Shown here in pieces: positions 3,890 through 28,430 of a DNA stretch of 64,000 bases (the first letter of the stretch is position 1; every line of letters starts with the position of its first letter). A program made the position numbers and the translations under genes. Source of the stretch: a virus (taxonomy: Duplodnaviria; Caudoviricetes); the IMG/VR virus record IMGVR_UViG_3300025608_000006, one strand, 5' to 3'. The notes beneath the pieces were generated by a model. The model was given only the letters and a program-made list of their open reading frames with translations. It did no database searches and was not told the origin of the DNA.

Positions 3890-3965
3890 TGACGAGGCGT
3901 TAAAAATATTGCGCAATAAAGTCATTACTGAAGAACAGTACGAAACTATAAGGAAACAAATATGA
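3873..3965 (+). CDS. Possible small protein, 30 aa (MPGGLDDEALKILRNKVITEEQYETIRKQI)
   Basis: Fills the gap between queE and the next gene; stop overlaps the next ATG (ATGA). Start uncertain. Confidence 0.4.
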   Translation: MPGGLDDEALKILRNKVITEEQYETIRKQI

Positions 3966-4366: not shown

Positions 4367-4391
4367 CAACTGTACACAAGGATGTTATACT
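4363..4391 (+). promoter_or_regulatory. Sigma70-type promoter with extended -10
   Basis: TTGACA (4363-4368), 17 bp, TG-N-TATACT (4386-4391); the -35 overlaps the TGA stop of the previous gene. Confidence 0.85.
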
Positions 4392-4423
4392 ATATTTAAA
4401 ATAAAACAATATAAGGCAATACA

Positions 4424-8042: not shown

Positions 8043-8048
8043 AGAACA

Positions 8049-8085
8049 GAAAGAACGAGTTCTTTTGAGCTTGTTCTTTCCTTTT
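8049..8085 (+). terminator. Rho-independent terminator
   Basis: 14-bp stem GAAAGAACGAGTTC / GAGCTTGTTCTTTC (with G-U pairs), TTTT loop, then CTTTT. Confidence 0.75.
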
Positions 8086-8099
8086 GATTTAAATAATGG

Positions 8100-8127
8100 T
8101 TGACATATACACTACTGATGCTATAAT
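8100..8127 (+). promoter_or_regulatory. Sigma70-type promoter with extended -10
   Basis: TTGACA (8100-8105), 16 bp, TG-C-TATAAT (8122-8127). Confidence 0.85.
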
Positions 8128-8157
8128 ATATGTATAAGTTAGATAAAGGGCAATGAT

Positions 8158-11003: not shown

Positions 11004-12212
11004 ATGGCATTACGTCTAAGACGCGGCACAGATGCAGAACGCTTGCAAATAACACCCGCACAGGGTGAATTAATCTACACCACTGATACTAAAGTTCTTT
11101 ATGTAGGAGACGGTAGTACAGTTGGCGGGACGCTCGTTACAGGCGGCGCTGGCAGCGGCTCCGCTACACTAGACGGGCTGATAGATACAGATCTTACCAA
11201 TGCAGAAAATGGTGATGCACTAGTATTTAATTCAGGAACCAATAGATGGGAAGCTGCCGAGATCCCTGGACTTTCAGACTTTGGCCTAGACGATTTAGAA
11301 GATGTGTTCATTGACATTAATACAAGAAACACAGGCGATTTTTTAGTACTCGATTCTGCTGGAAACTTTACCAATCAACCCTTAAGAGAAACCTTTGCAG
11401 AAGATGCAAACTGGCGAATTAATATTATCGGAGACGATAGTACAATTCTTGTTAATACAGACAATAATACACTAAGTGGTACATTAGTCGGAGATGTTTT
11501 AGGTGATGTTGATGGTGATGTTACGGGTAATTTAACTGGTGATGTTACGGGTAATTTAAATGGTGATGTTTTTGGGAATGTTTTTGGGAATGTTATCGGC
11601 GACCTTCAAGGTGATTTAAGTGGTAGTGTGTTTAGTGAAGACAGTTCACTAATAGTAGACGGTACAACCAATACTATTACTGCGGACTCAGTAAATACAA
11701 ATCTACTTAATAGTTCGATCAATACCCCGATTGTTTTGCAAAATGTTGATAGAACTCCAGTGCGGATTTCAGCAATTACAGATGGCAATCCCGGCGGCTT
11801 TCCTTATACAGAATATCTATCTATTAAAGGAACATTTTTAACTCCAGAATCAGTAGCTCCAGGCGATATAGTAGGTGGTTGGAAGATATCTGGTTATGAC
11901 GCTGCTGCCGGTATCGGTAAATCAACAACTATATTGGCTGCTCGCTTGATGGCTGATGCTGTGATAACTGACACAAGTCCCAATTCTCTTACATCTATGC
12001 TTGTTAGTGGCGGTGGTACTAATACTTCTAGTTTCGACTTTTATGGCAGTGGTCAGTTTAAATCACCAGGTGCCATTACTCCTGGAGTATATGCTGATGC
12101 TGCTGCACGTGATGCAGCTATTACAACTCCGACAGCAGGTATGATGGTATTTGTAACTGACATTGCTAAGTTCCAAGGTTACGACGGTAGCGCCTGGGTT
12201 AACTTAAACTAA
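11004..12212 (+). CDS. Tail fibre / receptor-binding-like virion protein
   Basis: N-terminal MALRLRRGT...GELIYTTDTKVLYVGDG (Mtd-N/hyaluronidase-N-like), G(D/N)(V/L)x repeats, C-terminal GMMVFVTD..FQGYDGSAW; late promoter. Confidence 0.75.
   Translation: MALRLRRGTDAERLQITPAQGELIYTTDTKVLYVGDGSTVGGTLVTGGAGSGSATLDGLIDTDLTNAENGDALVFNSGTNRWEAAEIPGLSDFGLDDLEDVFIDINTRNTGDFLVLDSAGNFTNQPLRETFAEDANWRINIIGDDSTILVNTDNNTLSGTLVGDVLGDVDGDVTGNLTGDVTGNLNGDVFGNVFGNVIGDLQGDLSGSVFSEDSSLIVDGTTNTITADSVNTNLLNSSINTPIVLQNVDRTPVRISAITDGNPGGFPYTEYLSIKGTFLTPESVAPGDIVGGWKISGYDAAAGIGKSTTILAARLMADAVITDTSPNSLTSMLVSGGGTNTSSFDFYGSGQFKSPGAITPGVYADAAARDAAITTPTAGMMVFVTDIAKFQGYDGSAWVNLN
11513..11594 (+). repeat. Tandem 24-bp and 12-bp coding repeats in the tail fibre
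   Basis: TGGTGATGTTACGGGTAATTTAA(C/A) x2 plus a partial copy, then GTTTTTGGGAAT x2; encodes GDVTGNLT GDVTGNLN GDVFGNVFGNV. Confidence 0.85.
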
Positions 12213-12281: not shown

Positions 12282-12929
12282 ATGTCATTAACTTTATTAA
12301 CTTCCGGAACAACAAAAGCACCCAAGACTGTTAATCATACTTGGAGAGATCTAAATACTGCTATAGATCGTAGTATTAAAGAAATAGGTCTTACAAGCAA
12401 CGACATAGTCTTAGACGTCTTTCCTGCTAATACTATTGCACACTATACCATAACTGCTATGCCTGCTTACAGGGCTAATGCAACGCTTGTAAGTGCTAAA
12501 TTTGAAGCTAATTATTATATTAAATTATTTAAAGAAACACAGCCTACTTACATTGCTCTCATTCCTAGACACTGGGAATTGCTTAAAGAAGTAGATAGCT
12601 GGAACAATCTCAATATGTCTAGTGTTCGTTACATGGTTACTGGAAGCGGACCAGTTCCTCAAGAAATGATAGACGACTTTAAAAGCAAAGGTGTGCAAAC
12701 TGTTGCTAATTGGTACGGGATGACAGAAATGCCGCCGCCGGTGTTTATAGGTTATAACTCTGAAGAATTTGATTTTGAACCAAAAGAAGGTTACGATGTA
12801 GACTTTTTAGACGACGGCGAATGTATTATTAATGGATTTGCTACAGGCGATATTTTTGATGTACAATCTAAAAAATTTTTAAAAAGAAAACTTAGTAATT
12901 CTATTAACAGTACATGGAAGAATATTTAA
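12282..12929 (+). CDS. Minimal ANL-superfamily adenylating (AMP-binding) enzyme
   Basis: LLTSGTTKAPK (A3 P-loop), VTGSGPVP, NWYGMTE (A5) and ATGD (A7), in only 215 aa. Confidence 0.75.
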   Translation: MSLTLLTSGTTKAPKTVNHTWRDLNTAIDRSIKEIGLTSNDIVLDVFPANTIAHYTITAMPAYRANATLVSAKFEANYYIKLFKETQPTYIALIPRHWELLKEVDSWNNLNMSSVRYMVTGSGPVPQEMIDDFKSKGVQTVANWYGMTEMPPPVFIGYNSEEFDFEPKEGYDVDFLDDGECIINGFATGDIFDVQSKKFLKRKLSNSINSTWKNI

Positions 12930-14440
12930 TTGTATATATTCTTCTTTAACCACTGATACGTATTCTCGCAACCTGCACTTATCTGCTGATGTTTGTTAAA
13001 TTCACTTATAAAATAATCATATGTGCGGTTAACGTTATCGTCATCAATATCAGTTCTGTTCCATGTAGACAAGTCTACACCCCATGCTTTAGCAACCTGT
13101 CCCCACAAGAAGTCAGGAAAGCCTGAGGACTGTCCGAATTTAAGTTGTTCAAATTTATCTTTAATCATTTCTAAGTGGTTGTCTTTGCGTCCTATCTCTT
13201 GCATATCTTTCCAAAAATCAGTATCATCTCTATTGCTAAGGGTGTAGTGAACAATAATAAAATCATAGATGTTATCTAATAGACCTGTGATTTTATCATT
13301 ATAACTCGATAATGATTTTTCTCCTGCAAGCACATCACTTATAGTTTTAATTGATTCTGTAACTACTAATAATGATGTAGCTTCTAAAGCTTCGACGAAT
13401 CCAATACTTAGACCAATTAATGCAACGTTACCTTTCGCAGGGGTTTCAATTCTGCCCGGGGTCCATGAAATTAATCTAGGTTCCATCATTCTGTTATCTG
13501 TGCGTTCTTTAAAATATTCTAATACTGCTTCATCTGATACATGCGATGGACTAAAACTATAACCAGTTCCCATCCTGTGATACAAGCATACTTTAAATCG
13601 CCAGCCAAACGGCTCAGCTATACTTTGAGTATGGTTAACAAGTTCAGTAGTAGGATCACCATAGGAACGCTGGCATACCCAAGTTTTCCTTATAGGATAG
13701 TCTGCATATTCTTTATACTTCCAACCTAATTTTGTTGCAAGCACACGCCTAAATCCTGTAGCATCGATAAAGAAGTCGGCAGACTGTGTAGTATCATCTG
13801 CTAGTATTAGAGATTTAATAGTATCTCCTTCTGCTACAACATCTTTAACTTCGCCTAACACATGTATTACACCGCTTGGTATTGCATGTTTGTCTTTGAT
13901 AAAGCTTGCTGCTTTTTCTGCGTTTATATGCTGGCTCCAACTATATAACGGACTTAGTGTATATTCGCCGGTTTTATACGGCATAACATTGTTGTTCATA
14001 TAATGATATTGTGTATTAAAATACTTGTCAAACTTATCTAGTTTTTCATTAGATAGAAGATGCATAAGAACATCAGATGTGCTGATCTTATCTTTCCCTA
14101 AAAACAATTCAGATACATCTGACTCGGCTGTATTTAATCTAGTAATATCTCTTGGATAGTTGAAACTCGAATATTCAATCTTATTTTCTTTTGAATTCCA
14201 ATCTACAAACTTGTTGCCGAATTTGTAGATTGCTCCTGTTTCCTTCATCCAAACTTTATCGTCAATGCCCAGCTGTTTAAAAAACTGTGCTACGTGAGGT
14301 GTAACAGTTTCTCCAACTCCTATCTTAGGTATGTTTGGAGATTCTATCAATGTAATTATTAAATTAGGATGATATTTTGCTAGCCATGCAGCAGCAAACC
14401 ATCCGGCGGTACCACCCCCTACAATCGTTACTTTTTTCAT
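12926..14440 (-). CDS. Flavin-dependent tryptophan-halogenase-family protein
   Basis: IVGGGTAGW FAD motif, IGVGET, AIYKFGNKF (catalytic Lys position), FFIDATGF, GFVEALEAT, DTDFW. Confidence 0.85.
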   Translation of the reverse strand: MKKVTIVGGGTAGWFAAAWLAKYHPNLIITLIESPNIPKIGVGETVTPHVAQFFKQLGIDDKVWMKETGAIYKFGNKFVDWNSKENKIEYSSFNYPRDITRLNTAESDVSELFLGKDKISTSDVLMHLLSNEKLDKFDKYFNTQYHYMNNNVMPYKTGEYTLSPLYSWSQHINAEKAASFIKDKHAIPSGVIHVLGEVKDVVAEGDTIKSLILADDTTQSADFFIDATGFRRVLATKLGWKYKEYADYPIRKTWVCQRSYGDPTTELVNHTQSIAEPFGWRFKVCLYHRMGTGYSFSPSHVSDEAVLEYFKERTDNRMMEPRLISWTPGRIETPAKGNVALIGLSIGFVEALEATSLLVVTESIKTISDVLAGEKSLSSYNDKITGLLDNIYDFIIVHYTLSNRDDTDFWKDMQEIGRKDNHLEMIKDKFEQLKFGQSSGFPDFLWGQVAKAWGVDLSTWNRTDIDDDNVNRTYDYFISEFNKHQQISAGCENTYQWLKKNIYN

Positions 14441-16271: not shown

Positions 16272-17064
16272 TTGGATAGCTACTGTTGATTTAGATTTAA
16301 TGACTGCATCCGATAACGACTTATTAGAGTTAGTTAAGCTATGTGCCATTCATACTTGCGTTAAAATACCTAGTCAAAAGCTTACAATAGAACGAGAAGC
16401 TGAAATTGTAAAGTCTTTTCCTAACCCGTATGTGCTGTTTACACCTGATAGTCCAAACTTTGAGCGCAGTGCTCTAGACGCTGAAGGATATATAGGACTC
16501 GTGTCTGAAAATAGTATAGCAGGACACAAAGAAGAAATGTTATGGCACAACGAAAGTCCACATGCTAGATTGGGGTCTAGTGTTGCTTGGTTGTATGGCG
16601 AACAAGGTATGGAAGGCAGTACAACAGTATGGAATAATACTTTGCTTGCATATGCTGACTTAGACTCTGATACAAAAGAAAAAATAAAAGATTTAAAGTG
16701 TATAACGTTTGGCAATGTTAATCATAGCGTAGCACGAACAGACGAAAACTTTAAAAATAGATCTATATACAATAACGTTCCTACTCCGCTAATACAAACT
16801 AACTATGCAGGAAAAACAGGATTATTTTTAAGCTTGCATCAGTTTGAACGATTTGAAGGAATGACTAGAGAAGAAAGTTTAGAGATAGCAGAACCTTTAT
16901 TTGATTTTATCACACAAGACAAATATTGCTATACACATCAGTGGAAAGACGGTGATGTTTCACTAAGTGATCAATGGTTAGGAGTACATCGAAGACTGGA
17001 GTTTAGTAAAATGCAGGATAGAATTGTGCATCGAGCTACTTTTGATTATCCGGCTTTTGTATAA
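16264..17064 (+). CDS. TauD/TfdA-family 2OG dioxygenase
   Basis: WHNE (HxD/E), GSTTVW, HQWKDGDV..DQ..VHRR, HRAT. Confidence 0.8.
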   Translation: MNNWIATVDLDLMTASDNDLLELVKLCAIHTCVKIPSQKLTIEREAEIVKSFPNPYVLFTPDSPNFERSALDAEGYIGLVSENSIAGHKEEMLWHNESPHARLGSSVAWLYGEQGMEGSTTVWNNTLLAYADLDSDTKEKIKDLKCITFGNVNHSVARTDENFKNRSIYNNVPTPLIQTNYAGKTGLFLSLHQFERFEGMTREESLEIAEPLFDFITQDKYCYTHQWKDGDVSLSDQWLGVHRRLEFSKMQDRIVHRATFDYPAFV

Positions 17065-17782
17065 CAAAACTTTGATTTTCTAAAGGTTCTAGCGTAACAG
17101 CATATAGTTTCCAATTGTTAATTACAACAAATTCGTGTACTGCACTCATTACTCCGTATGAAAACCCATTTGATACACCAACCTGAAAGTAGTCATGACC
17201 TGAGATGAATCCGCCTGGTTTTATTTTATCTGCAAATGAATTTAGTTCTGCTTTGGTTCTTTCATACGTGTGAGTAGTATCTATATAGATCCAATCAAAA
17301 TACTCGTCATTAAACAAATTTCCTGCTTCTGCAGAGTCTATTTGATGTATTTCTATGTTTTCTTTTTTACCTAGTATACTGTTCACTGAATTTAATTGAT
17401 AATCGAATTGAAAAATATCAATAAGATGTAACTTTTGTGGTTGTGTAACCTCGTATATACGTTCTGCAAAACGACCTCTATCAACACCTATCTCTGCTAC
17501 TACAGCATTTTTTGGCATTTGTCCTAGTAAACTCATACGGTCGAGAATTGCTTTACAGCCATCTACATGATGCGGTTCAAGAAACCGTAAAGTTTTAATA
17601 GAATCAAAAATTCTTTGATCAGTTTTACTATCAAATAGTTTACCTAAGTATTCGTCAAAAAACTTATCAATATCTTCTATATGACCTATTTTAAAAGATC
17701 GAGTTTTTTCTTTAAAAGCATCTATATGCTGATGTAAATCTATCTTTAGCTGTTTTAAAAACTCTTCTGCACTTTCTTGCAC
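17036..17782 (-). CDS. Class I SAM-dependent methyltransferase (Methyltransf_24-like)
   Basis: AEIGVDRG, DWIYIDTTHTYE, GGFISGHDY; GTG start with SD GAGGT. Confidence 0.8.
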   Translation of the reverse strand: MQESAEEFLKQLKIDLHQHIDAFKEKTRSFKIGHIEDIDKFFDEYLGKLFDSKTDQRIFDSIKTLRFLEPHHVDGCKAILDRMSLLGQMPKNAVVAEIGVDRGRFAERIYEVTQPQKLHLIDIFQFDYQLNSVNSILGKKENIEIHQIDSAEAGNLFNDEYFDWIYIDTTHTYERTKAELNSFADKIKPGGFISGHDYFQVGVSNGFSYGVMSAVHEFVVINNWKLYAVTLEPLENQSFVIQKPDNQK

Positions 17783-17795
17783 AACTTACCTCACT

Positions 17796-18350
17796 TTACC
17801 ATCTAGGATGTTTGTTTAATTCTTCAAAAAATTTGTCTGGGAAAATTTCCCACACTGTTTGATTGGTGCCTCTATAAAACACATCTTTTATACGTTTCAT
17901 TTGCCCTGTCTTTTCCATAGCAGGAGCAAATACTCTGTGTACTATACGCTGTGTACCTGCTTCGTTTTCATTAGAGGTTATAAATGCCCTGGCGCCTTCT
18001 GGAAGCCATTCTAAACAAGCAGGAATTAAAAATTGTCCAGTGGCATGTTGATGTGTGACAATCTGATTACGTGTTCGTAAACTGACTAGCGGTAATTTAT
18101 CTGTAAACACGCATGTTCTAGCAGCAACCCTAAATGTATTAGGGCCCATTACATCGTCGAATGTATGTGCTGCTACACTACCTATTGCTTCATTATTATA
18201 ATATAAAATCCAAGTTTGCCATTTAGCTTCTTTATGAAAACAATCTACAAGCATATGCTGCGATGCATTATTTTCAAAACCTCGGGCTTCTGCGTTTTTA
18301 TAAAAATCTTCTAAATCTAAGTCTTCTGACCAAGGTATAATATTATACAT
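17796..18350 (-). CDS. Putative GNAT-like acyltransferase
   Basis: WILYYNNEAIGSV...FRVAARTC beta pattern resembles a GNAT core; no decisive motif. Confidence 0.4.
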   Translation of the reverse strand: MYNIIPWSEDLDLEDFYKNAEARGFENNASQHMLVDCFHKEAKWQTWILYYNNEAIGSVAAHTFDDVMGPNTFRVAARTCVFTDKLPLVSLRTRNQIVTHQHATGQFLIPACLEWLPEGARAFITSNENEAGTQRIVHRVFAPAMEKTGQMKRIKDVFYRGTNQTVWEIFPDKFFEELNKHPRW

Positions 18351-19023
18351 TAAGTGCGTTCTCTATAAAATCAGCTGGATAATTTGTTCTAAAACTGTTC
18401 CAACATAGTTTGTCCATTACTGCCCAAGGCTGCGGTGTATTCCACTCTATGCCTAAACTTTCTAAATGTTTGCGCATTTCGGCTTGACGTGTACTGTATA
18501 TATGACTTTCAACTTCTGCAATACTTACACAAGGCTCATCCTCATGATATGTAAAAAAGTAATTCATACTTTTTAATTTGCCGTCAACAATAAAATAACT
18601 GCTAGGATGCATACTATACTTGTGAAACCCTAAACTTTTATGTGCTTTAATTATTTCAAGCATTTGATCTTGCCAATCTGGTAATACACTATCGTAATTT
18701 TCTGTTAAGCAGCCTGCACTATTCCAAAAGTCTTTTCCGTCTATACTTAAAAAGATTTTTTTATTTTCTGTATCTAATTCAAACTCAGGAACTAAGTTTG
18801 GAAATTTTTCTGCCATTAATGAGAGATATTTAACTTCTCTTTTAAATTTTTCTTCCATTAGTGCAGGATCGACTACTTGATTTTGTCCTTTATGATACTC
18901 GCCGTCATTATAATACCATTGCACAAATGTTGTTAAATCTTTATCAGCTAAACTTGTGTAAATTAAGTTGTTTCTACACAATCCAATACCTGGTACGTTG
19001 TTCCAATAATATTCATAGTCCAT
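18343..19023 (-). CDS. Protein-kinase-fold-like protein with degenerate catalytic loop
   Basis: REVKYL..M...P..VP (alphaC-like), HKYSMHPSSYF, KLKSMNYFF; paralog of 23609-24286. TATAAATA and SD GAGGA upstream. Confidence 0.45.
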   Translation of the reverse strand: MDYEYYWNNVPGIGLCRNNLIYTSLADKDLTTFVQWYYNDGEYHKGQNQVVDPALMEEKFKREVKYLSLMAEKFPNLVPEFELDTENKKIFLSIDGKDFWNSAGCLTENYDSVLPDWQDQMLEIIKAHKSLGFHKYSMHPSSYFIVDGKLKSMNYFFTYHEDEPCVSIAEVESHIYSTRQAEMRKHLESLGIEWNTPQPWAVMDKLCWNSFRTNYPADFIENALNV

Positions 19024-19041
19024 AATGATATTCCTCAGTGT

Positions 19042-19057
19042 TATTTATAGGTAAATA
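19042..19057. promoter_or_regulatory. Back-to-back late promoters
   Basis: Minus TATAAATA (19049-19042) and plus TAAATA (19052-19057) at a divergent gene junction. Confidence 0.7.
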
Positions 19058-19086
19058 GTAGCATATAATTAAAATGTGAGTACTTA

Positions 19087-20133
19087 ATGAATACACTATT
19101 AGACACACTATCAATGTGCGAACACTGTTATCGACATATTCCTGCTGTTAGATTTGAAAAAGATAATCAAATATGGCTAGGAAAAACGTGTCCCGAACAC
19201 GGTTATCACGAATGCTTGGTAGAAATAGACGCAGATTTTTATCTTAATTTTAAGTACGAACGCAGAAAGCCTAATACGTTTTGGTTTGAAATAACTAACC
19301 GTTGCAATTTAGACTGTCCGCATTGTTATCAGATGCCGGATAATTTATCAATAGATCCTACTGTTGCTTCAATAATAGAACAAACTAAAAAACTACCGGA
19401 TGATATGGCTATTGCGTTAGTAGGAGCAGAGCCTACAACACGTAAAGACCTAGCAGATATTGTAAAGAATATACAGTCGCTAACAGAACAGCCTCGGTGG
19501 TTAATGGTTGTAACTAACGGAATAAACTTAGGCAAGCGAGCATATGCAGAAAAATTTGTTGGGATAGAAGGGTTAACTTGGACTATTGGGCTCAACCATC
19601 CTGATTATAATGGCGGCGTTATTAGAAAAAAACAACAAGTGGGAATCGATAACTGCATTGAACTAGGCCTCACTATTAAGAACTTTACTTACACTTTAGG
19701 AACTATGGATCAATTAGATGACGTATTAGAAGAAATACAAGAATGGGATCGTAAAGGAGTATGTAGCGATGCAAGAATACAACTAGGTGTTGAAATTGGG
19801 CGCACTCCAGACGAAGACGAACCAGAACATTACTTGTCAGAGTTAGTTAAAGCAGCAGAGGCACTATGTAAGAAAAAGGGATGGGAGTGGGAAGTAAATG
19901 AAACGCACGGCAATCGCACTCATTTCTTAGTAAAAATAAACGGTATTACGCACAGGTTTATAAAATGGTGCGATGTTAAAACTATAGATTTTGAAGAAGT
20001 GTATTCTGAATCTTGGGCCACTGTAGTTCCAGGAAAACCAAAAAGTCCACTATTACATCAAGTTATATTGAGAGATAGAGCAGTTAACGAAAGAAAACCG
20101 TTGTTTGATACATTGCCAGAGAAATATCGATGA
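19087..20133 (+). CDS. Radical SAM protein with Tes/MJ0619-type N-terminal CxxC...CxxH domain (paralog 1)
   Basis: TLSMCEHC...KTCPEHG; EITNRCNLDCPHCY; GAEPTTRKDL; VTNG. Confidence 0.85.
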   Translation: MNTLLDTLSMCEHCYRHIPAVRFEKDNQIWLGKTCPEHGYHECLVEIDADFYLNFKYERRKPNTFWFEITNRCNLDCPHCYQMPDNLSIDPTVASIIEQTKKLPDDMAIALVGAEPTTRKDLADIVKNIQSLTEQPRWLMVVTNGINLGKRAYAEKFVGIEGLTWTIGLNHPDYNGGVIRKKQQVGIDNCIELGLTIKNFTYTLGTMDQLDDVLEEIQEWDRKGVCSDARIQLGVEIGRTPDEDEPEHYLSELVKAAEALCKKKGWEWEVNETHGNRTHFLVKINGITHRFIKWCDVKTIDFEEVYSESWATVVPGKPKSPLLHQVILRDRAVNERKPLFDTLPEKYR

Positions 20134-21188
20134 ATAATATTAAAAATACATTGTCGATATGTCACCATTGTTATAGACACGTTTCGGCAACTAGATTTGA
20201 AAGAGACGGAAGTATATGGTTAACTAAAACGTGTCCGGAACACGGAGAATCAACACATCTAGTAGAACCAGATGCAGATTTTTATAACAATTATGTTTAC
20301 CGTAGACATGCCCTACAAAGTTATTTTATTGAAATTACTAATAGATGTAATTTAACTTGTCCGCATTGCTATCAAATGCCCGATAACAAATCCACCGATC
20401 CAGCAATTGATACTATGCTTAACAAAATTCAATCTTGGCCCGATGACGGCTATCCTGTTGCGCTTGTTGGTGCTGAACCTACAGTAAGACAAGACTTGCC
20501 TGAAATTATCAATCGCATACACACTCTCCCCGGCAAGAAGCGAACTGTAATGGTATTAACTAACGGTGTTAATATGCATAAGGAAGATTATGCAAGAAAG
20601 TTTGAAGGTATCGATAATTTAATGTGGACTATTGGCTTAAATCATACAGACTACCAAGGTCCTGTAGTGCGAAGAAAACAGATGCAAGGTATAGAAAATA
20701 TGATGAAGTATAAACTTCCAATTAAAAATATTTCTTATACCTTACTAAATCTTACACAACTAGAAGACTGCATAGACGAACTTATTGGGTTTGATAATAA
20801 GTATTGCAGTCAGTTTAGAATTCGATGTGGCGTAGATATCGGAAGGTCTCCGGAAGATAACGAACAAGTGTTTTTAAGTGATTTGCTTAATGCTACAGAA
20901 GAAATTTGTAAATCTAAAGGATATACTTTTGAAAGAGAGCCAGAATCAGGCAATAGAGCACATTATCCAGTAAGGATCAACGGCCTAGCTACTAAAATTA
21001 TACAGTGGCCTAGTGCAGAAACACTAGACTTGAGCGAAGTACAAACAGAAGCAATTGCAGATATATTACCTGGGCAGCCTCCGAGTCCGCTAGTACACCA
21101 AGTGTTACTTAGAGACGGCGCAATTAATAAAAGACTCCCACTACTAGATACAATACCAAAGGAATGGATAGACAATTATGGCAAATAG
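20130..21188 (+). CDS. Radical SAM protein with Tes/MJ0619-type N-terminal CxxC...CxxH domain (paralog 2)
   Basis: TLSICHHC...KTCPEHG; EITNRCNLTCPHCY; GAEPTVRQDLPEII; LTNG. Confidence 0.85.
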   Translation: MNNIKNTLSICHHCYRHVSATRFERDGSIWLTKTCPEHGESTHLVEPDADFYNNYVYRRHALQSYFIEITNRCNLTCPHCYQMPDNKSTDPAIDTMLNKIQSWPDDGYPVALVGAEPTVRQDLPEIINRIHTLPGKKRTVMVLTNGVNMHKEDYARKFEGIDNLMWTIGLNHTDYQGPVVRRKQMQGIENMMKYKLPIKNISYTLLNLTQLEDCIDELIGFDNKYCSQFRIRCGVDIGRSPEDNEQVFLSDLLNATEEICKSKGYTFEREPESGNRAHYPVRINGLATKIIQWPSAETLDLSEVQTEAIADILPGQPPSPLVHQVLLRDGAINKRLPLLDTIPKEWIDNYGK

Positions 21189-21987
21189 AGGAATTAACGG
21201 AACACCGTATTTTGATATGGAACAATATATCGATATGGAAGGATTTGAAAAGTTACAGCCTGAGATTGTAACAGGCTTCGCTCTAGCAAGAGAATATGCA
21301 AAAGAAGCAACTTGGATGACTCCTGGATTTACATTTGAAAATATGAGCTATATTCATAATTGGAAACCTATATACCAAGCACTACAGGAATGGCAACAGT
21401 TGCCTGATGATGATCCAATTAAACAAGCTGGTGCAAAAATTATGCCTCAAGACTTTAGTGATTATAAACAGCGTAATATCTTTACTCGTTTTCTAAAAAT
21501 GGCAATGGGTGCATACGATCCTTACATTTATTATTTCTTATGGGAGGAAGGTAGTTGGGATGACAGAACTGCTGAAAGAACATTAACCGAAGAAGCAAGG
21601 TATTTTCCTGAAACAGTCAAATGGGTTGAAGATTTAATCGATCAAAAGATATTTAAACATATTGGCAGAGTTATTTTCTTCCATTGCGATGCAGACGGTA
21701 TTCCATTCGAACACAGAGATTTGGATGCTAAGAATGGTATGAACGAAAGCTTTCCACATAAAAACGAGTTTATACATATTCGTCCTAACACTAAAAAATC
21801 ATTTTATATATGGGATCCTAAAACTAAGAATAAAACATACTTAAATACTAGAGCTGCTTGGTGGAACGATCAAGACTGGCACGGCGGAGAGCGCATTATG
21901 GAACAAAGTTATGCATTACGCATTGACGGTGAGTTTACAGAAGAGTTTCGTAAAACGCTTGGCATTAACAATATAGAGAGTTATTAA
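21178..21987 (+). CDS. 2OG-Fe(II) oxygenase-like protein
   Basis: GRVIFF..FEHRD (HxD), WWNDQDWHG, YALRID. Confidence 0.6.
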   Translation: MANRGINGTPYFDMEQYIDMEGFEKLQPEIVTGFALAREYAKEATWMTPGFTFENMSYIHNWKPIYQALQEWQQLPDDDPIKQAGAKIMPQDFSDYKQRNIFTRFLKMAMGAYDPYIYYFLWEEGSWDDRTAERTLTEEARYFPETVKWVEDLIDQKIFKHIGRVIFFHCDADGIPFEHRDLDAKNGMNESFPHKNEFIHIRPNTKKSFYIWDPKTKNKTYLNTRAAWWNDQDWHGGERIMEQSYALRIDGEFTEEFRKTLGINNIESY

Positions 21988-21988
21988 T

Positions 21989-22597
21989 ATGAAAATGTAT
22001 CAAAAATTAAATGTTCCAGAACTACCATTAATTCAAAAAGAGTTATTAGAATATATTAACAAATATCCCGATAATGTTTTTGACGAGACAGCGACATCAG
22101 AATATTGCCACTCAGTAGGTATAAAAGATTTTCCAACTCTTAGCGGGTTTTTACTTCCGAGATTAAAACTGCCTTTACAATATACTAATATTTTGATTGT
22201 TCCGCCTGTGAGTAACTTTAACATTCATTTAGACGGGAACAACGAGTTACATCAAAAAGTTGTTATTACTATACCGATAAAAAATTATGAAGAGTCTGTA
22301 ACACATTGGTATGATCATAAGGATATTAAAGAAGAATATATTTGGTCTAAATTTTGTGCAAATGAGCAGCCGCCTTATAATGGATACACAATTAATTTTA
22401 TTAAGGAAGAAATTGTTTTACAGCCTATTGCAAGTACTACCGTCGACAGGATTACTTTAATGAGAGCTGACTGGTATCATGGCGTTGAAAATAGTATGAA
22501 CGAAAATAGAATAGTAATAGTGATTAGGTGTGGAGACACAATGATGGATGAAAATGTTAGTTTTGAAGATCTTATGGAGTTTCAAGATTTAATATGA
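21989..22597 (+). CDS. 2OG-Fe(II) oxygenase-like protein
   Basis: FNIHLD (HxD), RADWYHGVEN, RIVIVIR. Confidence 0.65.
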   Translation: MKMYQKLNVPELPLIQKELLEYINKYPDNVFDETATSEYCHSVGIKDFPTLSGFLLPRLKLPLQYTNILIVPPVSNFNIHLDGNNELHQKVVITIPIKNYEESVTHWYDHKDIKEEYIWSKFCANEQPPYNGYTINFIKEEIVLQPIASTTVDRITLMRADWYHGVENSMNENRIVIVIRCGDTMMDENVSFEDLMEFQDLI

Positions 22598-23091
22598 AAT
22601 ATTTAGGCAATTACGCAGACTGGATACAACCAGAATGGATCGACTTTATAAAAGATAACGATGGCACATGTCGACCTGGAGGTGGCAGAAATCCTGACAG
22701 TGAAGAATTTAGAAAAGCAGCAGAACACGGATACGATTTAACACAAACGTATTGGTATATTTACGAGCCCGATACGTTTCCGTTTGATGTTAAGTCGCCT
22801 ATTCCGTTGGATGGTGAGTTTTTGTGGTGGTTTATAAAAATGAATCCAGGTGATAAAATGCCAATGCATAAAGATCCGCATGCTCTTATAGAGAAAAATA
22901 GCAAACGCTATTGGATGGCATTACAAGACTACGAACCAGGGCATGTGTTTATCTATGAAGATAAACTTGCAACAGGATACAAAAAAGGAGACTTATTTGT
23001 ATATGACGATAGTAAAGCACTGCACGGTGCATGTAATATAGGATGGAGCACAAGAATGATTGCATGTTTTAGCTCTTATGATCTGCAATGA
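22594..23091 (+). CDS. 2OG-Fe(II) oxygenase-like protein (paralog of next gene)
   Basis: MNPGDKMPMHKD, ALHGACN, RMIA; starts MKYLGNYADWI. Confidence 0.65.
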   Translation: MKYLGNYADWIQPEWIDFIKDNDGTCRPGGGRNPDSEEFRKAAEHGYDLTQTYWYIYEPDTFPFDVKSPIPLDGEFLWWFIKMNPGDKMPMHKDPHALIEKNSKRYWMALQDYEPGHVFIYEDKLATGYKKGDLFVYDDSKALHGACNIGWSTRMIACFSSYDLQ

Positions 23092-23612
23092 ATTATATAG
23101 GCAATTACGCAGATTGGATTAATGATAATAACATTATAGAAATGTTAAACAGTAAACAAGGCGAGAAGACTCCAGTATGGCAACCTGATCGCTGGACAGG
23201 CAATGAAACATTAGAAAAGTTTAGAGAAATGGCAAGACCAGGATACTCAAATAATAAGTGTTTCTTCCATCAGCTTAACGCAGGATCTCCTGAAATGGAA
23301 GGATACAACTTTGTGTATCCTGATTTACCAGATACTAGAGAATATCAGTTTTGGTGGTTTGTAAAACTATATCCTGGGGAATTTCAAGCAATGCATGTCG
23401 ATCCGCATTTAACCGAGCTTACTAATTTTGTAAGATATACTATGTTCTTACAAGATTGGGAACCTGGTCATATATTTGCGTATGATGACAAAATGCTGTC
23501 CAACTATAAGGCAGGCGATTTATACGAATGGAGTGATCCTGAGTGCATACATGGGCCTGCTAACATAGGTTACAATCCAAGACTTACATTACAAATTACA
23601 TTACACGATTAA
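23088..23612 (+). CDS. 2OG-Fe(II) oxygenase-like protein (paralog of previous gene)
   Basis: LYPGEFQAMHVD, CIHGPAN, PRLTLQ; starts MNYIGNYADWI. Confidence 0.65.
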   Translation: MNYIGNYADWINDNNIIEMLNSKQGEKTPVWQPDRWTGNETLEKFREMARPGYSNNKCFFHQLNAGSPEMEGYNFVYPDLPDTREYQFWWFVKLYPGEFQAMHVDPHLTELTNFVRYTMFLQDWEPGHIFAYDDKMLSNYKAGDLYEWSDPECIHGPANIGYNPRLTLQITLHD

Positions 23613-24286
23613 TATAATTTATTAAAAATCTCTGGGAATGGACAGTCAGGCCAACACTTCGGCAAGTGTACATTCATTGTAAGATTAAAGAAATTTCTGA
23701 GATCAATTACGCCGTCAGCTTCTGACTGATCAAATCTATAAGAACCTTCGTCTCCAATCATGCCTGCAATTGATTTTCTTTCAATAAAATAATCGTCATG
23801 CGGCACAACTGAGTAATAATCAATAATTTTTAAAATACCGTCTTTGTTTATAAAGAAACAATGTGGATAGAGTGCTAATTTATAATGTTTACTATTTTTA
23901 AATTCTTTTACAACACCATACAATCGATCCTTCCAATCAGGAATTTCTTTATCAATTGACCTAGATGGATCAAATATTATTTGCGATAATGTTTCTGTGT
24001 TCCATTCTATAAAAACTTTATTATTAGCACGATCAATTTCTAAAAGTTTAGGAGTGCAGCTTAAATGTTGTAGCTCTTCTAAAAAACGTACTTCTCTTTC
24101 AAAAAAGAAATCTATTATCTCTTGTGTCATTCCAGGCTGAGAGCCTTGATAATCTTCGTTAATACAATAGTGTTTGCATAAAATATCTTTATTTGGATTC
24201 ATCAGAGCTGTGTATAACATATTAGATGACGCCGTTACAGCATCAGCTGTTCTTTTGTAATAATAATTCCAATTACTTGTATTCAT
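23609..24286 (-). CDS. Protein-kinase-fold-like protein with degenerate catalytic loop
   Basis: EREVRFLEEL...TPKLLEID..NKVFIEW, YKLALYPHCFF, LKIIDYY (DFG position). Confidence 0.5.
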   Translation of the reverse strand: MNTSNWNYYYKRTADAVTASSNMLYTALMNPNKDILCKHYCINEDYQGSQPGMTQEIIDFFFEREVRFLEELQHLSCTPKLLEIDRANNKVFIEWNTETLSQIIFDPSRSIDKEIPDWKDRLYGVVKEFKNSKHYKLALYPHCFFINKDGILKIIDYYSVVPHDDYFIERKSIAGMIGDEGSYRFDQSEADGVIDLRNFFNLTMNVHLPKCWPDCPFPEIFNKLY

Positions 24287-24330
24287 AAACATACTTATCA
24301 TACATTTACAATCGATAAGTATGTTTATGA
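24283..24330. repeat. 17-bp perfect inverted repeat forming a bidirectional promoter/start site
   Basis: TCATAAACATACTTATC (24283-24299) and GATAAGTATGTTTATGA (24314-24330); each arm reads TAAGTA-N5-ATG. Confidence 0.9.
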
Positions 24331-24926
24331 TACATAAGTTAAATTTAAAATATAATATAGATGACGCTGTTGAATATTTTAATATATTAAAAACAGACTT
24401 TAATTATTTACACTGGGATTATTTGAAACATCATAATCAACCGACATTTATTGATGCTAAAAATACAATTGATAGTGTTAATGGCTGGGGACTACAAACA
24501 ATATACAACGATCCTACATTTCCGTATCACCCTGATTTAGACCCGCATGACGAAGGTCCTGAATATTTTAAAGATACTCCAATGGTATTTGGATTCTTTA
24601 AGAGATTAAAAAATTTATTAAAACAGCCGTATCGGTCATTTTTATTTAATTATCCGCCTAACCAAAAATTAGGAAAATGGCATTCTCATAACCGAGACCA
24701 TGTTACTATTGTAATTCCTATTATAACCAACGACAAAGTTTGTATAATTAGTCATCAAGAAAATATTCAAACCGTTGTACTAGAAGAAGGCAACGTATAC
24801 TTATTAGATACAACAAAATACCCTGCTGAATTTCAAAACAATAGTCAAGGAGAAATAACTATAATAATTATTAGTGTTCTAATAGAATATAAGCAAGAAG
24901 TATTAGACATGATAGGAATCATATAA
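24327..24926 (+). CDS. Asp/Asn beta-hydroxylase-like cupin protein, metal ligands degenerate
   Basis: NYPPNQKLGKWHSH, IVIPIITN, YLLDTTKY; distal His not evident. Alternative start at 24321. Confidence 0.45.
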   Translation: MIHKLNLKYNIDDAVEYFNILKTDFNYLHWDYLKHHNQPTFIDAKNTIDSVNGWGLQTIYNDPTFPYHPDLDPHDEGPEYFKDTPMVFGFFKRLKNLLKQPYRSFLFNYPPNQKLGKWHSHNRDHVTIVIPIITNDKVCIISHQENIQTVVLEEGNVYLLDTTKYPAEFQNNSQGEITIIIISVLIEYKQEVLDMIGII

Positions 24927-25513
24927 TGGATAATCCTGGCGCAGCCTACGACAGAAGATTACTAACTTTAAAAAGTTGTGCGTTTCTAAATGCATATAGA
25001 CGCATAAATTTAAAAGAATTAACCGAATCATTAAAGGACAAACAAGGCTCAGATGTTACCACTGAGCCAAGCCGCTGGAACTTAGATAATAGCGACTATG
25101 GAAAAATACATGCTATTTGGAAAGAAGCTAATTTTAATTCTTCTGCTATGAAGTGGACAAACTACTATCCTGGAGGAGAGTTCTCACAGGAGTTTGTCGA
25201 TGATGTTGCATTTTATTTACGATTAAAAGGTGTGCATCGCGCTTGGATTAGCAGAGTTGATCCCGGATACTATGCTCCGTGGCATTGGGACGTCGATGAT
25301 AATGAACAGGAATATTTAAAGTATGGTGAGATTAAACGCTACAGTATTATGATGGGAGATAAAACTCCCGGACATATTTTTATGCTAGGGGAAGATTATT
25401 TGTACGACTGTGTTCAAGGATCAATATTTCGTTGGAATAATCATAACGAGTGGCACAGTGGCATTAATGCAGGTATGACTCCAAAGTTTATGTTTCACAT
25501 AATCGGATATTAA
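24926..25513 (+). CDS. 2OG-Fe(II) oxygenase-like protein
   Basis: RVDPGYYAPWHWD (HxD), NEWHSGINAG, KFMFH; TAATG coupling. Confidence 0.65.
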   Translation: MDNPGAAYDRRLLTLKSCAFLNAYRRINLKELTESLKDKQGSDVTTEPSRWNLDNSDYGKIHAIWKEANFNSSAMKWTNYYPGGEFSQEFVDDVAFYLRLKGVHRAWISRVDPGYYAPWHWDVDDNEQEYLKYGEIKRYSIMMGDKTPGHIFMLGEDYLYDCVQGSIFRWNNHNEWHSGINAGMTPKFMFHIIGY

Positions 25514-27054
25514 TTACTAGTTGACCAACTTAGTTTTTTATTAATATAATTTTGTACAAAAGTTTTAAACTTAGGATCGTTAGTATCTGTTTGTGACATA
25601 TTTATATCGTAAATATCTTCATATCGTTCTGCTTCTGTTAGAACAAATAATCTATCTGATAAGAATGGATTGCAGCCTCGAAGTCCAGTAAAGCCGTTAT
25701 CTGAATAAAACTCTTGAACTAAACTTTCTGCTTCATACCAATTCATAGTGTCGTGATCCCAAATAACAATATCGTTTCTAGTGCTGCCAACGCCGCCTCC
25801 TCGAGGAGTAGTAGACTGGAATACTACATTGTTATTTTTATCTTTGTATACATTGTAACCTTCGTTTTGTCGTGCTTCTAATTTTACAAGTCCGTTATCA
25901 GTTAGTTGCTTTGTAAATCTACTTTGATTAGTAAGACTTAGATCATAATCACCAATTTCTAATATGTGAGCACTTGCACTTTGTCTATTCCATTTAGTGT
26001 TTAACCAATTAACTGAATCGTACCATGACTCTTTTGTTTCTCCGGGAATGCCGCAGATAAGTTGTATATTTGCTCGATACCTTTTAGGAGCATGTATATC
26101 TGTGTATGCTTGAAATTCTAATAGACCTTCTTTTACTTGATCGGGGTCCATGCCTTTACGCACAAGCTTTCCTGCTTCTTGATTGAATGTTTCAAGACCC
26201 ATGCTATGCCCAAGAAAGCCTAATCTAATGTAAGTATCCCAGTGCTCTTTGTGTTTAACAACTAAATCTCCGCGGGCAAACCCGCACATCCAAGGATTAT
26301 AATTTAACTCGTCTACTGCTTCAGCATATTTTTGTAATTTTGACGGACGATCATTAAACGTTTCGTCCATAACTCGCCAGTTTTTAATTCCCCATTTTTC
26401 ATATCCAGTCTGTAGCTGACGCTTAAACTCTTCTTTGCTTACACTAACATCTTTAGCTTGACCTAACAATGGAAAATTACAATAGCTGCAATTAAACATA
26501 CATCCTCGTGCAGTTTCAATTTGCGGCATTTCATAAGGTTTTATAAAATCTCTAGCTTCGTAATCAGTTAAGTAGCTGTCTAATGGCGTAGAAGGATAAT
26601 GATGCAATCCTCTAATAACACGTTTATCGGTAATAACTGTATCAGTTTTTAAAGGCGCACCTAAAGTGCCAATTAAATGTCTGCATAAAGCTAATACTGC
26701 ATTTTCTCCGTAACTGTCTACCCAATAGTCAACGTTCTCAGCCGGAGTAACAAGAGCATTTTGTCCTCCTACTACAACAGGTATATCAGGATATTCTTTT
26801 TTTAACCAAGCAATAAATTCATTTAAAAACGGGCTCCATGGATTTAAAAATGCAGTTCCAAAACAAAACATAACAGTACTCGACGATGCACGAGAACGTA
26901 CAAATTCTTGTAATTCTTCTAGTTTCCAAAATGCAGTAAAGTCTACTACTTCTGCATCCCAGTCGTGCATCCTTAAATACGTAGCAACTCGATGAGGCCA
27001 TATGGATCTCTCCCATCGTTTACCAGTAAGTGAAAAGAATATTACATTATTCAT
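25510..27054 (-). CDS. Cobalamin-binding radical SAM protein (class B methyltransferase-like)
   Basis: N-terminal B12-binding-type region (VVVGGQNA), ETARGCMFNCSYC, DETFN, GLETF, ICGIPGET. Confidence 0.85.
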   Translation of the reverse strand: MNNVIFFSLTGKRWERSIWPHRVATYLRMHDWDAEVVDFTAFWKLEELQEFVRSRASSSTVMFCFGTAFLNPWSPFLNEFIAWLKKEYPDIPVVVGGQNALVTPAENVDYWVDSYGENAVLALCRHLIGTLGAPLKTDTVITDKRVIRGLHHYPSTPLDSYLTDYEARDFIKPYEMPQIETARGCMFNCSYCNFPLLGQAKDVSVSKEEFKRQLQTGYEKWGIKNWRVMDETFNDRPSKLQKYAEAVDELNYNPWMCGFARGDLVVKHKEHWDTYIRLGFLGHSMGLETFNQEAGKLVRKGMDPDQVKEGLLEFQAYTDIHAPKRYRANIQLICGIPGETKESWYDSVNWLNTKWNRQSASAHILEIGDYDLSLTNQSRFTKQLTDNGLVKLEARQNEGYNVYKDKNNNVVFQSTTPRGGGVGSTRNDIVIWDHDTMNWYEAESLVQEFYSDNGFTGLRGCNPFLSDRLFVLTEAERYEDIYDINMSQTDTNDPKFKTFVQNYINKKLSWSTSN

Positions 27055-27698
27055 ATATTGCTCTCAAATTTAAATTCGTTAGGAACTATAGATTTTAATT
27101 CTTCTAACGATGACTGTTCTACATCAAAATAAACCGATGTTTCAGATTGTTTAAAATTACTTATAGTTTTATTTTTAGACGCACGGTTTAACCAAACACT
27201 CATAGTATTATCAAAACTATACCTAGGATTGCTGCCGCCGGCTGTTATTTTTACAGACACAGAATCATTTAATACATTGCGTGTTAATAATTTTCGAACT
27301 ACTAGCTGCATCCGAGTATGCTCGCCTACACTAATTGCAGTGTGCAATCTTCCTGCATCCATTTCGTACCATACTCCGTCTTTTACAAGTTTATGCATTT
27401 GTTGATTATCAAGATCAATAAGGTAGTCTTGATCTCCTGACAAATTTAAATGATACCTATCGTCGATGTCAGCATGTTGTGTGTAACAACTAGGCGACTC
27501 CATTACAATAATTCTTGCTTGTCCAGTGTCAATAGGAAGGCTATTCCAAATACTTTCCCACACTGTGTTTTTATATTCTTCTAATAATACCCAAGGATCA
27601 TAAAAAAAGTCTCCAGAAGGTGCTGTTAAATCGTGCTTTCCTTTTTCAAGTAATGGCATGTCATCAATAGATGCAGTATATGGTGTTTTAACAAGCAT
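27051..27698 (-). CDS. 2OG-Fe(II) oxygenase-like (Asp/Asn beta-hydroxylase-like) protein
   Basis: YTQHAD (HxD), YHLNL, DAGRLHTA, RMQLVVR; start 5 nt after TAAATA. Confidence 0.65.
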   Translation of the reverse strand: MLVKTPYTASIDDMPLLEKGKHDLTAPSGDFFYDPWVLLEEYKNTVWESIWNSLPIDTGQARIIVMESPSCYTQHADIDDRYHLNLSGDQDYLIDLDNQQMHKLVKDGVWYEMDAGRLHTAISVGEHTRMQLVVRKLLTRNVLNDSVSVKITAGGSNPRYSFDNTMSVWLNRASKNKTISNFKQSETSVYFDVEQSSLEELKSIVPNEFKFESNI

Positions 27699-27702
27699 AT
27701 GC

Positions 27703-27748
27703 ATATTTACCAAGACTAAGTTAACTACGCATATTTCTTGGTAAATAT
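27703..27748. repeat. 12-bp perfect inverted repeat carrying divergent TAAATA promoters
   Basis: ATATTTACCAAG (27703-27714) and CTTGGTAAATAT (27737-27748); the spacer contains TTAACTACGCATAT. Confidence 0.9.
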
Positions 27749-27752
27749 CATT

Positions 27753-28430
27753 ATGAATCTAACTATAGATAAAAAATGGAAGCGTATAGGCATTAGTTTA
27801 AGCGGGGGTGCTGATAGTGCATTGCTTGCATATCTTGTATTGTCACAAACCAATGCCGACATATATTTTACTACACAAATACGCTTATGGAAAACTAGGC
27901 CGTGGCAACGTTATATTGCACAGGAAGTAGTAGAATGGTTCCGTAATCGTTTTGATAATCGTATAGAGCACATAGAAGGGTTTATTCCGCCCGAAATGGA
28001 AGAACCGCATACAACGTATATTACAGACGAGTACGAAAAAACAAAACCAGGTAACAGAATTATACTTAGAGCACATAACGAGTTTATTGCACATACACAT
28101 AAGTTGGATGCGTGGTTTGCAGGTGTTAACAAAAATCCAGACATAGATATTCCAGGTGCATTAGCAGAACGTAACGAAGGTGTGTTGCCATTACACACTA
28201 CACATATGGGAGTTGACATTTGTCATCCTTTCGTGTATACTACTAAAGACTGGATCATTAAACAATACTATGATAACAACATAGAAGATTTATTAAATTT
28301 AACACGTAGCTGCGAAGGAGAATTTGCAGAGTTAGATTATACAACATACACACCTAGGCAATTTGTTCCTATATGCAATGAATGTTTTTGGTGTAAGGAA
28401 AGAGAGTGGGCTATTGAACAAGTCAAATAG
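27753..28430 (+). CDS. QueC-like N-type ATP pyrophosphatase
   Basis: PP-loop SLSGGADS; C-terminal TRSC...CNECFWCKER, a QueC-type Zn motif. Confidence 0.75.
   Translation: MNLTIDKKWKRIGISLSGGADSALLAYLVLSQTNADIYFTTQIRLWKTRPWQRYIAQEVVEWFRNRFDNRIEHIEGFIPPEMEEPHTTYITDEYEKTKPGNRIILRAHNEFIAHTHKLDAWFAGVNKNPDIDIPGALAERNEGVLPLHTTHMGVDICHPFVYTTKDWIIKQYYDNNIEDLLNLTRSCEGEFAELDYTTYTPRQFVPICNECFWCKEREWAIEQVK

Follow-up and report, generated by a model that had tools for sequence, protein, structure and literature searches.

The radical SAM gene pair

We have analysed a tandem pair of radical SAM (S-adenosylmethionine) genes, rA and rB, in a 64,000-nucleotide stretch of viral DNA (Duplodnaviria; Caudoviricetes; IMG/VR record IMGVR_UViG_3300025608_000006), which is called the window below. 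The two open reading frames (ORFs) are coupled by an ATGA overlap, in which the stop codon of rA and the start codon of rB coincide (Table 1). Their products are 51% identical over the full length (E 1e-135), indicating that they are paralogues. The original prediction, made from the sequence of the window, had described them as a phage pair resembling a stripped-down tetraether synthase of the Tes/GDGT-MAS (MJ0619) family. Every motif on which it relied, namely TLS(M/I)CxxC, KTCPEHG, DADFY, EITNRCNLxCPHCY, GAEPT(T/V)RxDL and TNG, was found in both proteins, and the motifs that it had given for MJ0619 were correct, since the alignment with the GDGT-MAS structure 7TOL gives TLSLCPIC, KTCPEHG, DVTNRCNLNCPIC and GGEPTVRSDLPELI.

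Both proteins showed the same two domains in the same order, each above its gathering score. The N-terminal zinc ribbon of the HMPTM/Tes type (PF23545) occupies residues ~5-45 of rA and rB (E 6e-15 and 7.5e-16; 55 and 57.9 bits against a gathering score of 27), and the radical SAM domain (PF04055) follows at residues ~67-197 (42.7 and 44.1 bits against 29.5). The resemblance of rA and rB to Tes is not due to chance. Purifying selection on the pair is strong, with ratios of nonsynonymous to synonymous substitution (dN/dS) of 0.05 for rA and 0.056 for rB. A pairing of one enzyme with one pseudo-enzyme was also considered, and it was rejected because rA and rB keep all catalytic motifs and have low dN/dS values. 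Judged by this selection and by their motifs, both are functional genes whose products should be catalytically intact.

Table 1. Coordinates of the gene pair, its sites and other features of the window, in order of position
Feature	Position	Strand	Remarks
AAA/MoxR-like ATPase, then DUF2201 metallopeptidase/VWA protein	6957-9468	+	upstream of the island
Mtd_N-type tail-fibre gene	11004-12212	+	island edge; PF18454, E 7.8e-12
AMP-binding protein	12282-12929	+	215 aa; fragment-sized; adjoins halogenase
Flavin-dependent tryptophan halogenase	12926-14440	-	PF04820, E 5e-83
w184, GNAT/FeeM-like acyltransferase candidate	17796-18350	-	184 aa; weak family signal, strong co-occurrence
w226, protein-kinase-like	18343-19023	-	226 aa; conserved partner
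Divergent intergenic region, w226(-)/rA(+)	19024-19086		63 bp
TATAAATA	19047-19040	-	exact; 16 nt before w226 start codon
TATAATTA	~19065-19072	+	~14 nt before rA start codon
rA, radical SAM paralogue A	19087-20133	+	348 aa; ORF call
rA rubredoxin-type site (C11, C14, C35, H38)	19117-19200	+	
rA CX3CX2C (C73, C77, C80)	19303-19326	+	
rB, radical SAM paralogue B	20130-21188	+	352 aa; ORF call; constant copy
rB rubredoxin-type site	20160-20243	+	
rB CX3CX2C	20346-20369	+	
w269, probably Asp/Asn beta-hydroxylase-type cupin	21178-21987	+	ESM Atlas feature lead PF05118
Cupin cup174	23088-23612	+	conserved module
w230, kinase-like paralogue	23609-24301	-	conserved module
Cupins cup201 and cup195	24321-25513	+	conserved module
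B12-binding radical SAM	25510-27054	-	conserved module
w220b	27051-27713	-	conserved module
Giant ORF	56644-63837	-	at least 2397 aa; CBM_5_12 module, E 1.7e-5; weak FG-GAP repeat

Fold and relation to tetraether synthase

A sequence search of the PDB returned GDGT-MAS (7TOL/7TOM) as the sole match (E 4.5e-21). The AlphaFold2 model of rB was of high confidence (mean predicted local distance difference test score, pLDDT, 93; predicted template-modelling score, pTM, 0.90), and a Foldseek search of the PDB with this model placed 7TOL/7TOM at the top (E 9e-18, TMq 0.72-0.73), with MoaA at E 1e-9 and TMq 0.53. VIA-align superposed residues 1-335 of the model on 7TOL with a Z score of 29.5 over 329 of the 352 residues (root-mean-square deviation 3.4 Å, 22% identity), whereas MoaA (Z 17.3) was matched by residues 59-332 only and all matches other than Tes began near residue 59. 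Among the structures matched in Swiss-Prot, only that of MJ0619 (Q58036) aligned from residue 4. Accordingly, GDGT-MAS, and not MoaA or PqqE, is the best structural match including the N-terminal domain; the fold assignment stands because no unrelated radical SAM family was the best match and the N-terminal domain does superpose. We consider it highly probable that rA and rB represent the Tes/GDGT-MAS fold in a stripped-down form.

Invariance was assessed in an alignment of 50 sequences, consisting of rB, rA and 48 relatives. The four residues of the N-terminal metal site (C11, C14, C35 and H38) are invariant in all 50 sequences, and their spacing, CX2CX20CX2H, is the same as that of the published GDGT-MAS motif C9X2C12X20C33X2H36 (PMC9433317), so that the predicted succession of a rubredoxin-like site and a radical SAM core is borne out. 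In the core, C73, C77 and C80, G114-A115-E116 and N145 are invariant. The cysteines of these two sites (C11, C14, C35, C73, C77 and C80) are the sole invariant cysteines of this alignment, and no invariant Cys, Met or Tyr lies beyond residue 203.

The phage proteins, with 348-352 amino acids, are ~130-140 residues shorter than Tes (493-506 amino acids). In alignments with 7TOL and with a Tes from a Methanocaldococcus genome (L101:8007-9485), the insert that holds the [4Fe-4S]N cluster of Tes (CPFDCGLCPNH; C73, C77, C80 and a His in Tes) is missing from the phage proteins. Another ~130 Tes residues also have no match; these are the helices and cysteines from which Tes forms its C-terminal cluster and its second lipid pocket. 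The beta hairpins of the C-terminal part are retained, and the Cys positions of Tes align to the regions of W293 and H323-Q324; the alignment is approximate there, but the absence of a conserved C-terminal Cys does not depend on it. Thus the loss of both the CPxDCGLC cluster and the C-terminal Cys ligands, which had been suspected from the window, is confirmed by the alignments and by Cys invariance.

In Tes, the [4Fe-4S]C cluster is held by three Cys and Met439, and Met439 as well as Tyr459 show full conservation in the archaeal homologues. The Tes mechanism requires this cluster, because the first lipid radical is held as a C-S bond until the second hydrogen abstraction (PMC9433317, PMC13459092). 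No conserved equivalents of the [4Fe-4S]C ligands, Met439 or Tyr459 were found in the 50 phage-family sequences. With [4Fe-4S]C absent, Csp3-Csp3 coupling of the Tes type would not be available to rA and rB, and by these comparisons tetraether-type tail-to-tail coupling is very unlikely. The lipid-coupling role that had been raised is also unlikely because the amphipathic helical lipid pocket is gone together with the cluster. In agreement with this, the NCBIfam Tes model (NF045702) gave 75.4 bits for rA and 81.2 bits for rB against a cut-off of 450. We consider that the two proteins are very probably not tetraether synthases. Outside the SAM motifs, the invariant charged or polar residues are R16, H17, K33, N171, H172, R230, R239, H278, E303, H323, Q324, R328 and D329, and this conservation would suggest a pocket or substrate with polar features.

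Two paralogues and their history

We compared 42 syntenic A/B loci. The usual order is A then B, and the tandem arrangement with the ATGA overlap is kept in most of them. In 9 of the 42 loci, only a single copy is present within 6 kb, as confirmed by tblastn, and three loci encode a further, more deeply branching paralogue, C, with 375-390 amino acids. In the maximum-likelihood tree, the A clade is monophyletic with a support of 100/100. Four distinct singletons were placed in this tree: three (L007, L013 and L018) are nested in the B clade and the fourth (L022) joins the A clade at its base with a weak placement (89/78). Since L013 is sister to the B copy of L017, whose phage retains A, A has been lost secondarily in that lineage. 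By this phylogeny, B appears as the core, constant copy and A as a duplicate that was lost in some lineages.

The original prediction regarded the enzyme as minimal, duplicated and possibly heterodimeric. The first two terms hold, and the third is not supported. An obligate A-B heterodimer, in which one subunit would be catalytic and the other scaffolding or regulatory, could draw on the tandem overlap kept in most loci and on the correlation between the pairwise distances of A and B (r = 0.80). However, this correlation is about the same as that with unrelated neighbours (0.57-0.78), and alleles have been reassorted: the window and L017 share 91% identity in A and 64% in B, and L011 and L012 share 64% in A and 85% in B. 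Furthermore, B occurs without A, three of the four singletons placed in the tree lying inside the B clade, and the sister clade is single-copy. A division into a catalytic and a non-catalytic subunit is also at odds with the presence of every catalytic motif and a dN/dS of about 0.05 in both copies. Because of the single-copy loci, the reassortment of A and B and the fact that GDGT-MAS was purified as a monomer, the obligate heterodimer is disfavoured, and we regard it as highly unlikely. The A and B clades have specific residues in the barrel strands and the loops that follow them (for example, YNG versus YQG, RIQ versus RIR and KW versus QWP). The sequence comparisons argue for two independent enzymes that may have related but distinct specificities.

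Distribution of the family

A word-index search gave 577 relatives on metagenomic contigs of up to 253 kb, and all of them have ~350 amino acids and share the two-domain layout. A full profile search of representatives at 50% identity gave 12,025 proteins at E < 1e-3, of which 164 reached E < 1e-30. In IMG/VR, 39 loci have an rB orthologue, and a looser pattern retrieved 324 relatives. When cellular genomes were scanned (one per species, 185,579 prokaryote species), the best matches had at most 34% identity over the N-terminal 150-260 residues only and were mostly archaeal Tes, with a few bacterial proteins. No DNA or tblastn match to the pair was found in 50,697 GenBank phage records, and the matching ESM Atlas clusters carry virus labels. 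Accordingly, these proteins form a large family, and in our searches all of its members came from phage contigs. The view that such a gene is unexpected in a phage has to be corrected in the light of the 577 relatives, the Atlas labels and the cellular scan.

Conserved neighbours

The synteny of the 42 loci revealed a common module that consists of the divergent genes w184 and w226, then rA, rB and w269, the cupins, and w230, the B12 radical SAM gene and w220b. There is an 11-nt overlap between the end of rB and the start of w269, and w269 follows rB in nearly all A/B loci with an identity of 62-92%. No significant Pfam match was obtained for w226, w230 or w269. A profile of w226 matched protein kinases, including TTK, among the PDB sequences (E 5e-6), its AlphaFold2 model (pLDDT 89) has a fold that matches kinases and Bud32 (TMq 0.38-0.46), and its Atlas leads are the Kdo/WaaP, RIO and APH families. 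The genes w226 and w230 encode kinase-like paralogues that share 22% identity in an alignment. Of 17 w184 orthologues, 4 matched FeeM (best E 0.0096) and 3 matched GNAT, and the Atlas lead was GNAT; a comparison of w184 with the PDB sequences gave no match.

A second scan of IMG/VR yielded a sister clade of 41 distinct single-copy enzymes that are 40-53% identical to A/B. A w226-like or w184-like gene lies within three genes of the enzyme in 38 of these 41 relatives with at least 40% identity, and both genes do in 33. The three exceptions are at or near a contig end, where the upstream side is missing from the contig. The order and orientation of the three genes differ among lineages. Neither type of neighbour was found beside any of 27 relatives with less than 40% identity to A/B. 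Taken together, w184, w226 and the radical SAM enzyme probably constitute a functional unit, which we call the trio.

A putative host-recognition island

The gene pair lies in an island that spans from the Mtd_N fibre gene (11004) to a tail collar gene and giant ORFs (53933-63837). Among the 41 single-copy relatives, 18 have an Mtd_N gene within three genes of the radical SAM gene, and in two other loci (L125 and L130) distant relatives stand directly after tail genes. A 'host recognition cluster' has been described for pelagimyophages, which is T4-like and rich in lipopolysaccharide (LPS) genes and whose radical SAM cassettes were mentioned without further analysis (PMC7029224). By analogy, the island appears to resemble this cluster. 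The divergent region between w226 and rA contains the words TATAAATA and TATAATTA, each shortly upstream of a start codon, which we consider to be putative late promoters of the T4 type.

Several other observations were made in the island and its surroundings. The giant ORF at its far end may encode a VrlC-like fibre, which bounds the host-recognition clusters of pelagi- and cyanomyophages. The tryptophan halogenase and the adjoining AMP-binding gene are both kept in two other loci (L001 and L002) and are unusual phage cargo. Upstream of the island, the MoxR-like ATPase gene and its neighbour form a CobS/CobT-like or MoxR-VWA pair. When positions 17036-29685 of the window were compared with L001, w269, MT24, w184, cup174, cup195, B12rS and SPASM1 were 86-92% identical, whereas rA and rB showed 67% and the halogenase and some cupins 48-58%. 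Such an uneven mosaic suggests that particular island genes have undergone recombination or evolved faster. In L004 (3487-6001), in which rA and rB are 90-93% identical to those of the window, a three-gene cassette is placed exactly between rA and rB; it encodes a class I SAM methyltransferase (205 amino acids), an opposite-strand cupin with an HxD...H motif (248 amino acids) and paralogue C (390 amino acids). Because of this exact insertion, tailoring cassettes appear to move as units in the island.

Proposed role and alternatives

As a whole, the best explanation in our view is that rA and rB are monomeric Tes-fold enzymes that act in the trio to tailor a host-recognition protein, and we give this reading a probability of about 40%. 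In such a mechanism, each enzyme would most likely make one 5'-deoxyadenosyl radical and take one hydrogen from a substrate with polar features, with the N-terminal metal site possibly serving as the point of electron entry or as a structural module. As separate monomers, rA and rB would act at two different positions or in two steps, with B as the ancestral and presumably indispensable enzyme and A as a duplicate that arose later and has specificity residues of its own. The trio of w184, w226 and the radical SAM enzyme would form the working unit, expressed late from the host-recognition island near the tail-fibre genes, and the cupin hydroxylases and the B12 radical SAM enzyme would come after it. 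The enzymes may act on a residue of a host-recognition (tail-fibre) protein of the virion or on an acyl or glycan decoration that this protein carries.

The island contains enzymes of the protein-tailoring type, namely AspH-like cupins, the tryptophan halogenase, and SPASM and B12 radical SAM enzymes. A protein-borne substrate is favoured because of the linkage to tail fibres, the late-type promoter words and these enzyme types nearby, with glycan or LPS tailoring a close second in our order of preference and single-chain acyl chemistry third. Taken by itself, a substrate borne on a host-recognition protein is a tentative choice, possible rather than probable. Going further, we can imagine an undescribed phage pathway in which the trio modifies the receptor-binding tail fibre of the Mtd_N type encoded next to it, for instance through an acylation step and then a radical step of C-H functionalisation or cross-linking, while the extra paralogues (A and C) and exchangeable cassettes of cupin, methyltransferase and B12 radical SAM genes would diversify the chemistry of host recognition. 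This specific pathway is unlikely as it stands.

Several points weigh against the tailoring of a host-recognition protein by the trio. Neither a precursor peptide nor a recognition element of ribosomally synthesised and post-translationally modified peptides was seen. The catalytic Asp residues of the HRD and DFG motifs are not evident in w226 and w230, which have KYSMHPSSYF with SMNYFF and LYPHCFF with IIDYY, respectively, and for this reason w226 may not phosphorylate; the two proteins may be pseudokinases or have unusual catalytic residues. The assignment of w184 as an acyltransferase is weak, as the family matches behind it are themselves weak. Enzymes that act on LPS, such as the WaaP/Kdo kinases and LpxO, likewise have kinase-like and AspH-like folds. 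Lastly, the contexts of the distant relatives diverge, being a nucleoside diphosphate (NDP)-sugar operon in L129, an archaeal glycan cluster in L128 and DNA-metabolism modules in L127 and L131, and therefore no single substrate class follows from context.

Some of these contexts fit a different substrate, in which a hydrogen would be abstracted from the carbon of a nucleotide sugar or glycan to give an unusual sugar that remodels the host LPS or glycosylates the virion. The radical SAM enzymes DesII and BtrN, with epimerisation, dehydration or deamination-type chemistry, are models for such reactions on sugars. In L129, the gene of the distant phage relative stands in translational coupling between those for an NDP-sugar 4,6-dehydratase/epimerase and for a nucleotidyltransferase, and genes for a DegT aminotransferase and a B12 radical SAM enzyme are close by. 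The archaeal tandem pair of L128 lies amid genes for an NDP-sugar epimerase, a GT2 protein, a SIS protein and a methyltransferase. The island of the window has genes for a UDP-glucose dehydrogenase, a short-chain dehydrogenase/reductase (SDR) epimerase and a protein resembling a glycerophosphotransferase. In 10 of the 41 relatives, the enzyme is flanked by small SDR/epimerase-like genes, and w226 has Atlas leads to the Kdo/WaaP kinases of LPS. LPS genes are also abundant in the host-recognition clusters of pelagimyophages (PMC7029224). However, the neighbours that stay constant throughout the 42 A/B loci, and also in the clade with at least 40% identity, are kinase-like and GNAT-like and not sugar-nucleotide enzymes, the sugar genes of the window form a separate operon on the opposite strand at a distance of over 13 kb, and a nucleotide-binding motif was not identified. 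We consider glycan tailoring somewhat unlikely for the pair.

Two further observations concern these distant contexts. The L128 pair (3038-5553; 426 and 415 amino acids, PF23545 and radical SAM) stands beside the gene for ribosomal protein L15e with two SPASM radical SAM genes nearby, and it is an independent duplication of the Tes-like fold in a glycan-type cluster. The IMG/VR contigs L177 and L181 (221 and 127 kb) each contain two distant copies, 27-32% identical to A/B, that lie three genes apart; on their flanks are B12 radical SAM genes and genes for a class III aminotransferase and an SDR, a set that resembles one for tailoring aminosugars or amino acids.

Chemistry on a lipid would be closer to the origin of the fold. 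The nearest fold is that of the lipid enzyme GDGT-MAS, and a pocket inherited from Tes could accept a single fatty-acyl tail, such as that of an N-acyl amino acid made by a FeeM-like w184, or lipid A. The weak FeeM (N-acyl amino acid synthase) matches of w184, the Kdo/WaaP lead of w226 and a hexapeptide acyltransferase in the island are consistent with this, and the AspH family of cupins includes the lipid A hydroxylase LpxO. On the other hand, [4Fe-4S]C, Met439, Tyr459 and the amphipathic helices of the second pocket are all missing and many invariant residues are charged, which makes two-chain coupling very unlikely and leaves at most the modification of a single chain. Even in this reduced form, acyl-chain chemistry is decidedly unlikely.

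A modification of nucleotides or nucleic acids, or a counter-defence function, would need only a substrate supplied by the host and no dedicated partner. It is suggested by two solo distant relatives in early or DNA-replication modules: that of L127 lies between a PD-(D/E)XK nuclease and an SNF2 helicase, beside DNA polymerase A, and that of L131 among Thy1, MazG, a single-stranded DNA-binding protein and an Acb2/Tad1-like sponge. Both are less than 31% identical to A/B and occur without the trio, and the A/B clade is found in a structural, host-recognition island with putative late-type promoters. We think that this function is only faintly probable for rA and rB.

Comparison with known systems

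Several known proteins share parts of the layout of rA and rB. The radical SAM protein TrsS (NF045646) was marginally the top NCBIfam match, with 78.9 bits for rA and 84.9 bits for rB against a cut-off of 490. TrsS has in common with the phage proteins the N-terminal ribbon and the radical SAM core, but the alignment is good only over residues ~60-160 of the core and the phage proteins are without the C-terminal part with selenocysteine or cysteine. In the literature found on TrsS, it appears as a table entry only, with no function stated. The cellular AlphaFold database cluster B5EC24 (316 amino acids) has the same two-domain layout and no N-terminal auxiliary insert, with template-modelling scores of 0.71/0.78 over residues 5-327; it is uncharacterised and differs in having only ~21% identity to the phage proteins. 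The pair on the archaeal metagenome contig L128 is similar in being a tandem of PF23545 and radical SAM proteins among tailoring enzymes, but these proteins are cellular and longer (415-426 amino acids), retain the helical insert and, in the case of P0239 at least, the C-terminal Cys.

The next-best barrel matches were MoaA (GTP 3',8-cyclase) and the SPASM/twitch maturases SkfB and SuiB, with Z scores of 15-17. These enzymes have C-terminal auxiliary clusters of their own that are unmatched in the phage proteins, and they lack the ribbon domain. In addition, the MoaA families TIGR02666, TIGR02668 and NF001199 gave 37-46 bits against cut-offs of 231-325, and rA and rB had no match to the SPASM domain (PF13186) and no conserved C-terminal Cys motif. 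Among viral resources, PHROGs gave weak matches to generic radical SAM families only, and the viral structures of BFVD gave generic radical SAM matches with TMq of at most 0.50, the family not being represented there. No literature linking Tes-like enzymes to phages was found.

The closest known system is Tes/GDGT-MAS (MJ0619, Q58036; 7TOL and 7TOM; NF045702), with which rA and rB share the CX3CX2C core, G(G/A)EPT, TNG and the C-terminal beta domain. They differ from it in that the phage genes are duplicated, are carried by phages and are tied to kinase-like and GNAT-like genes and not to archaeal lipid genes. No enzyme of this fold other than Tes/GDGT-MAS has been characterised, and the chemistry of Tes/GDGT-MAS is considered to need the auxiliary clusters. 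The phage family keeps the rubredoxin-type site but has lost both auxiliary clusters and the lipid pocket, so that it must catalyse a different chemistry. As a natural minimal version of the Tes fold, it can reveal the role of the N-terminal metal site, and if the proposed role is true, these enzymes would show what the fold does with the rubredoxin site alone. The trio is a defined three-gene unit that is amenable to expression and assay. In summary, our study suggests that phage-host recognition includes a layer of enzymatic tailoring that has so far escaped study, in the hypervariable islands of abundant marine T4-like phages, in which a fold characterised so far from tetraether synthase would be used in a minimal and duplicated form.

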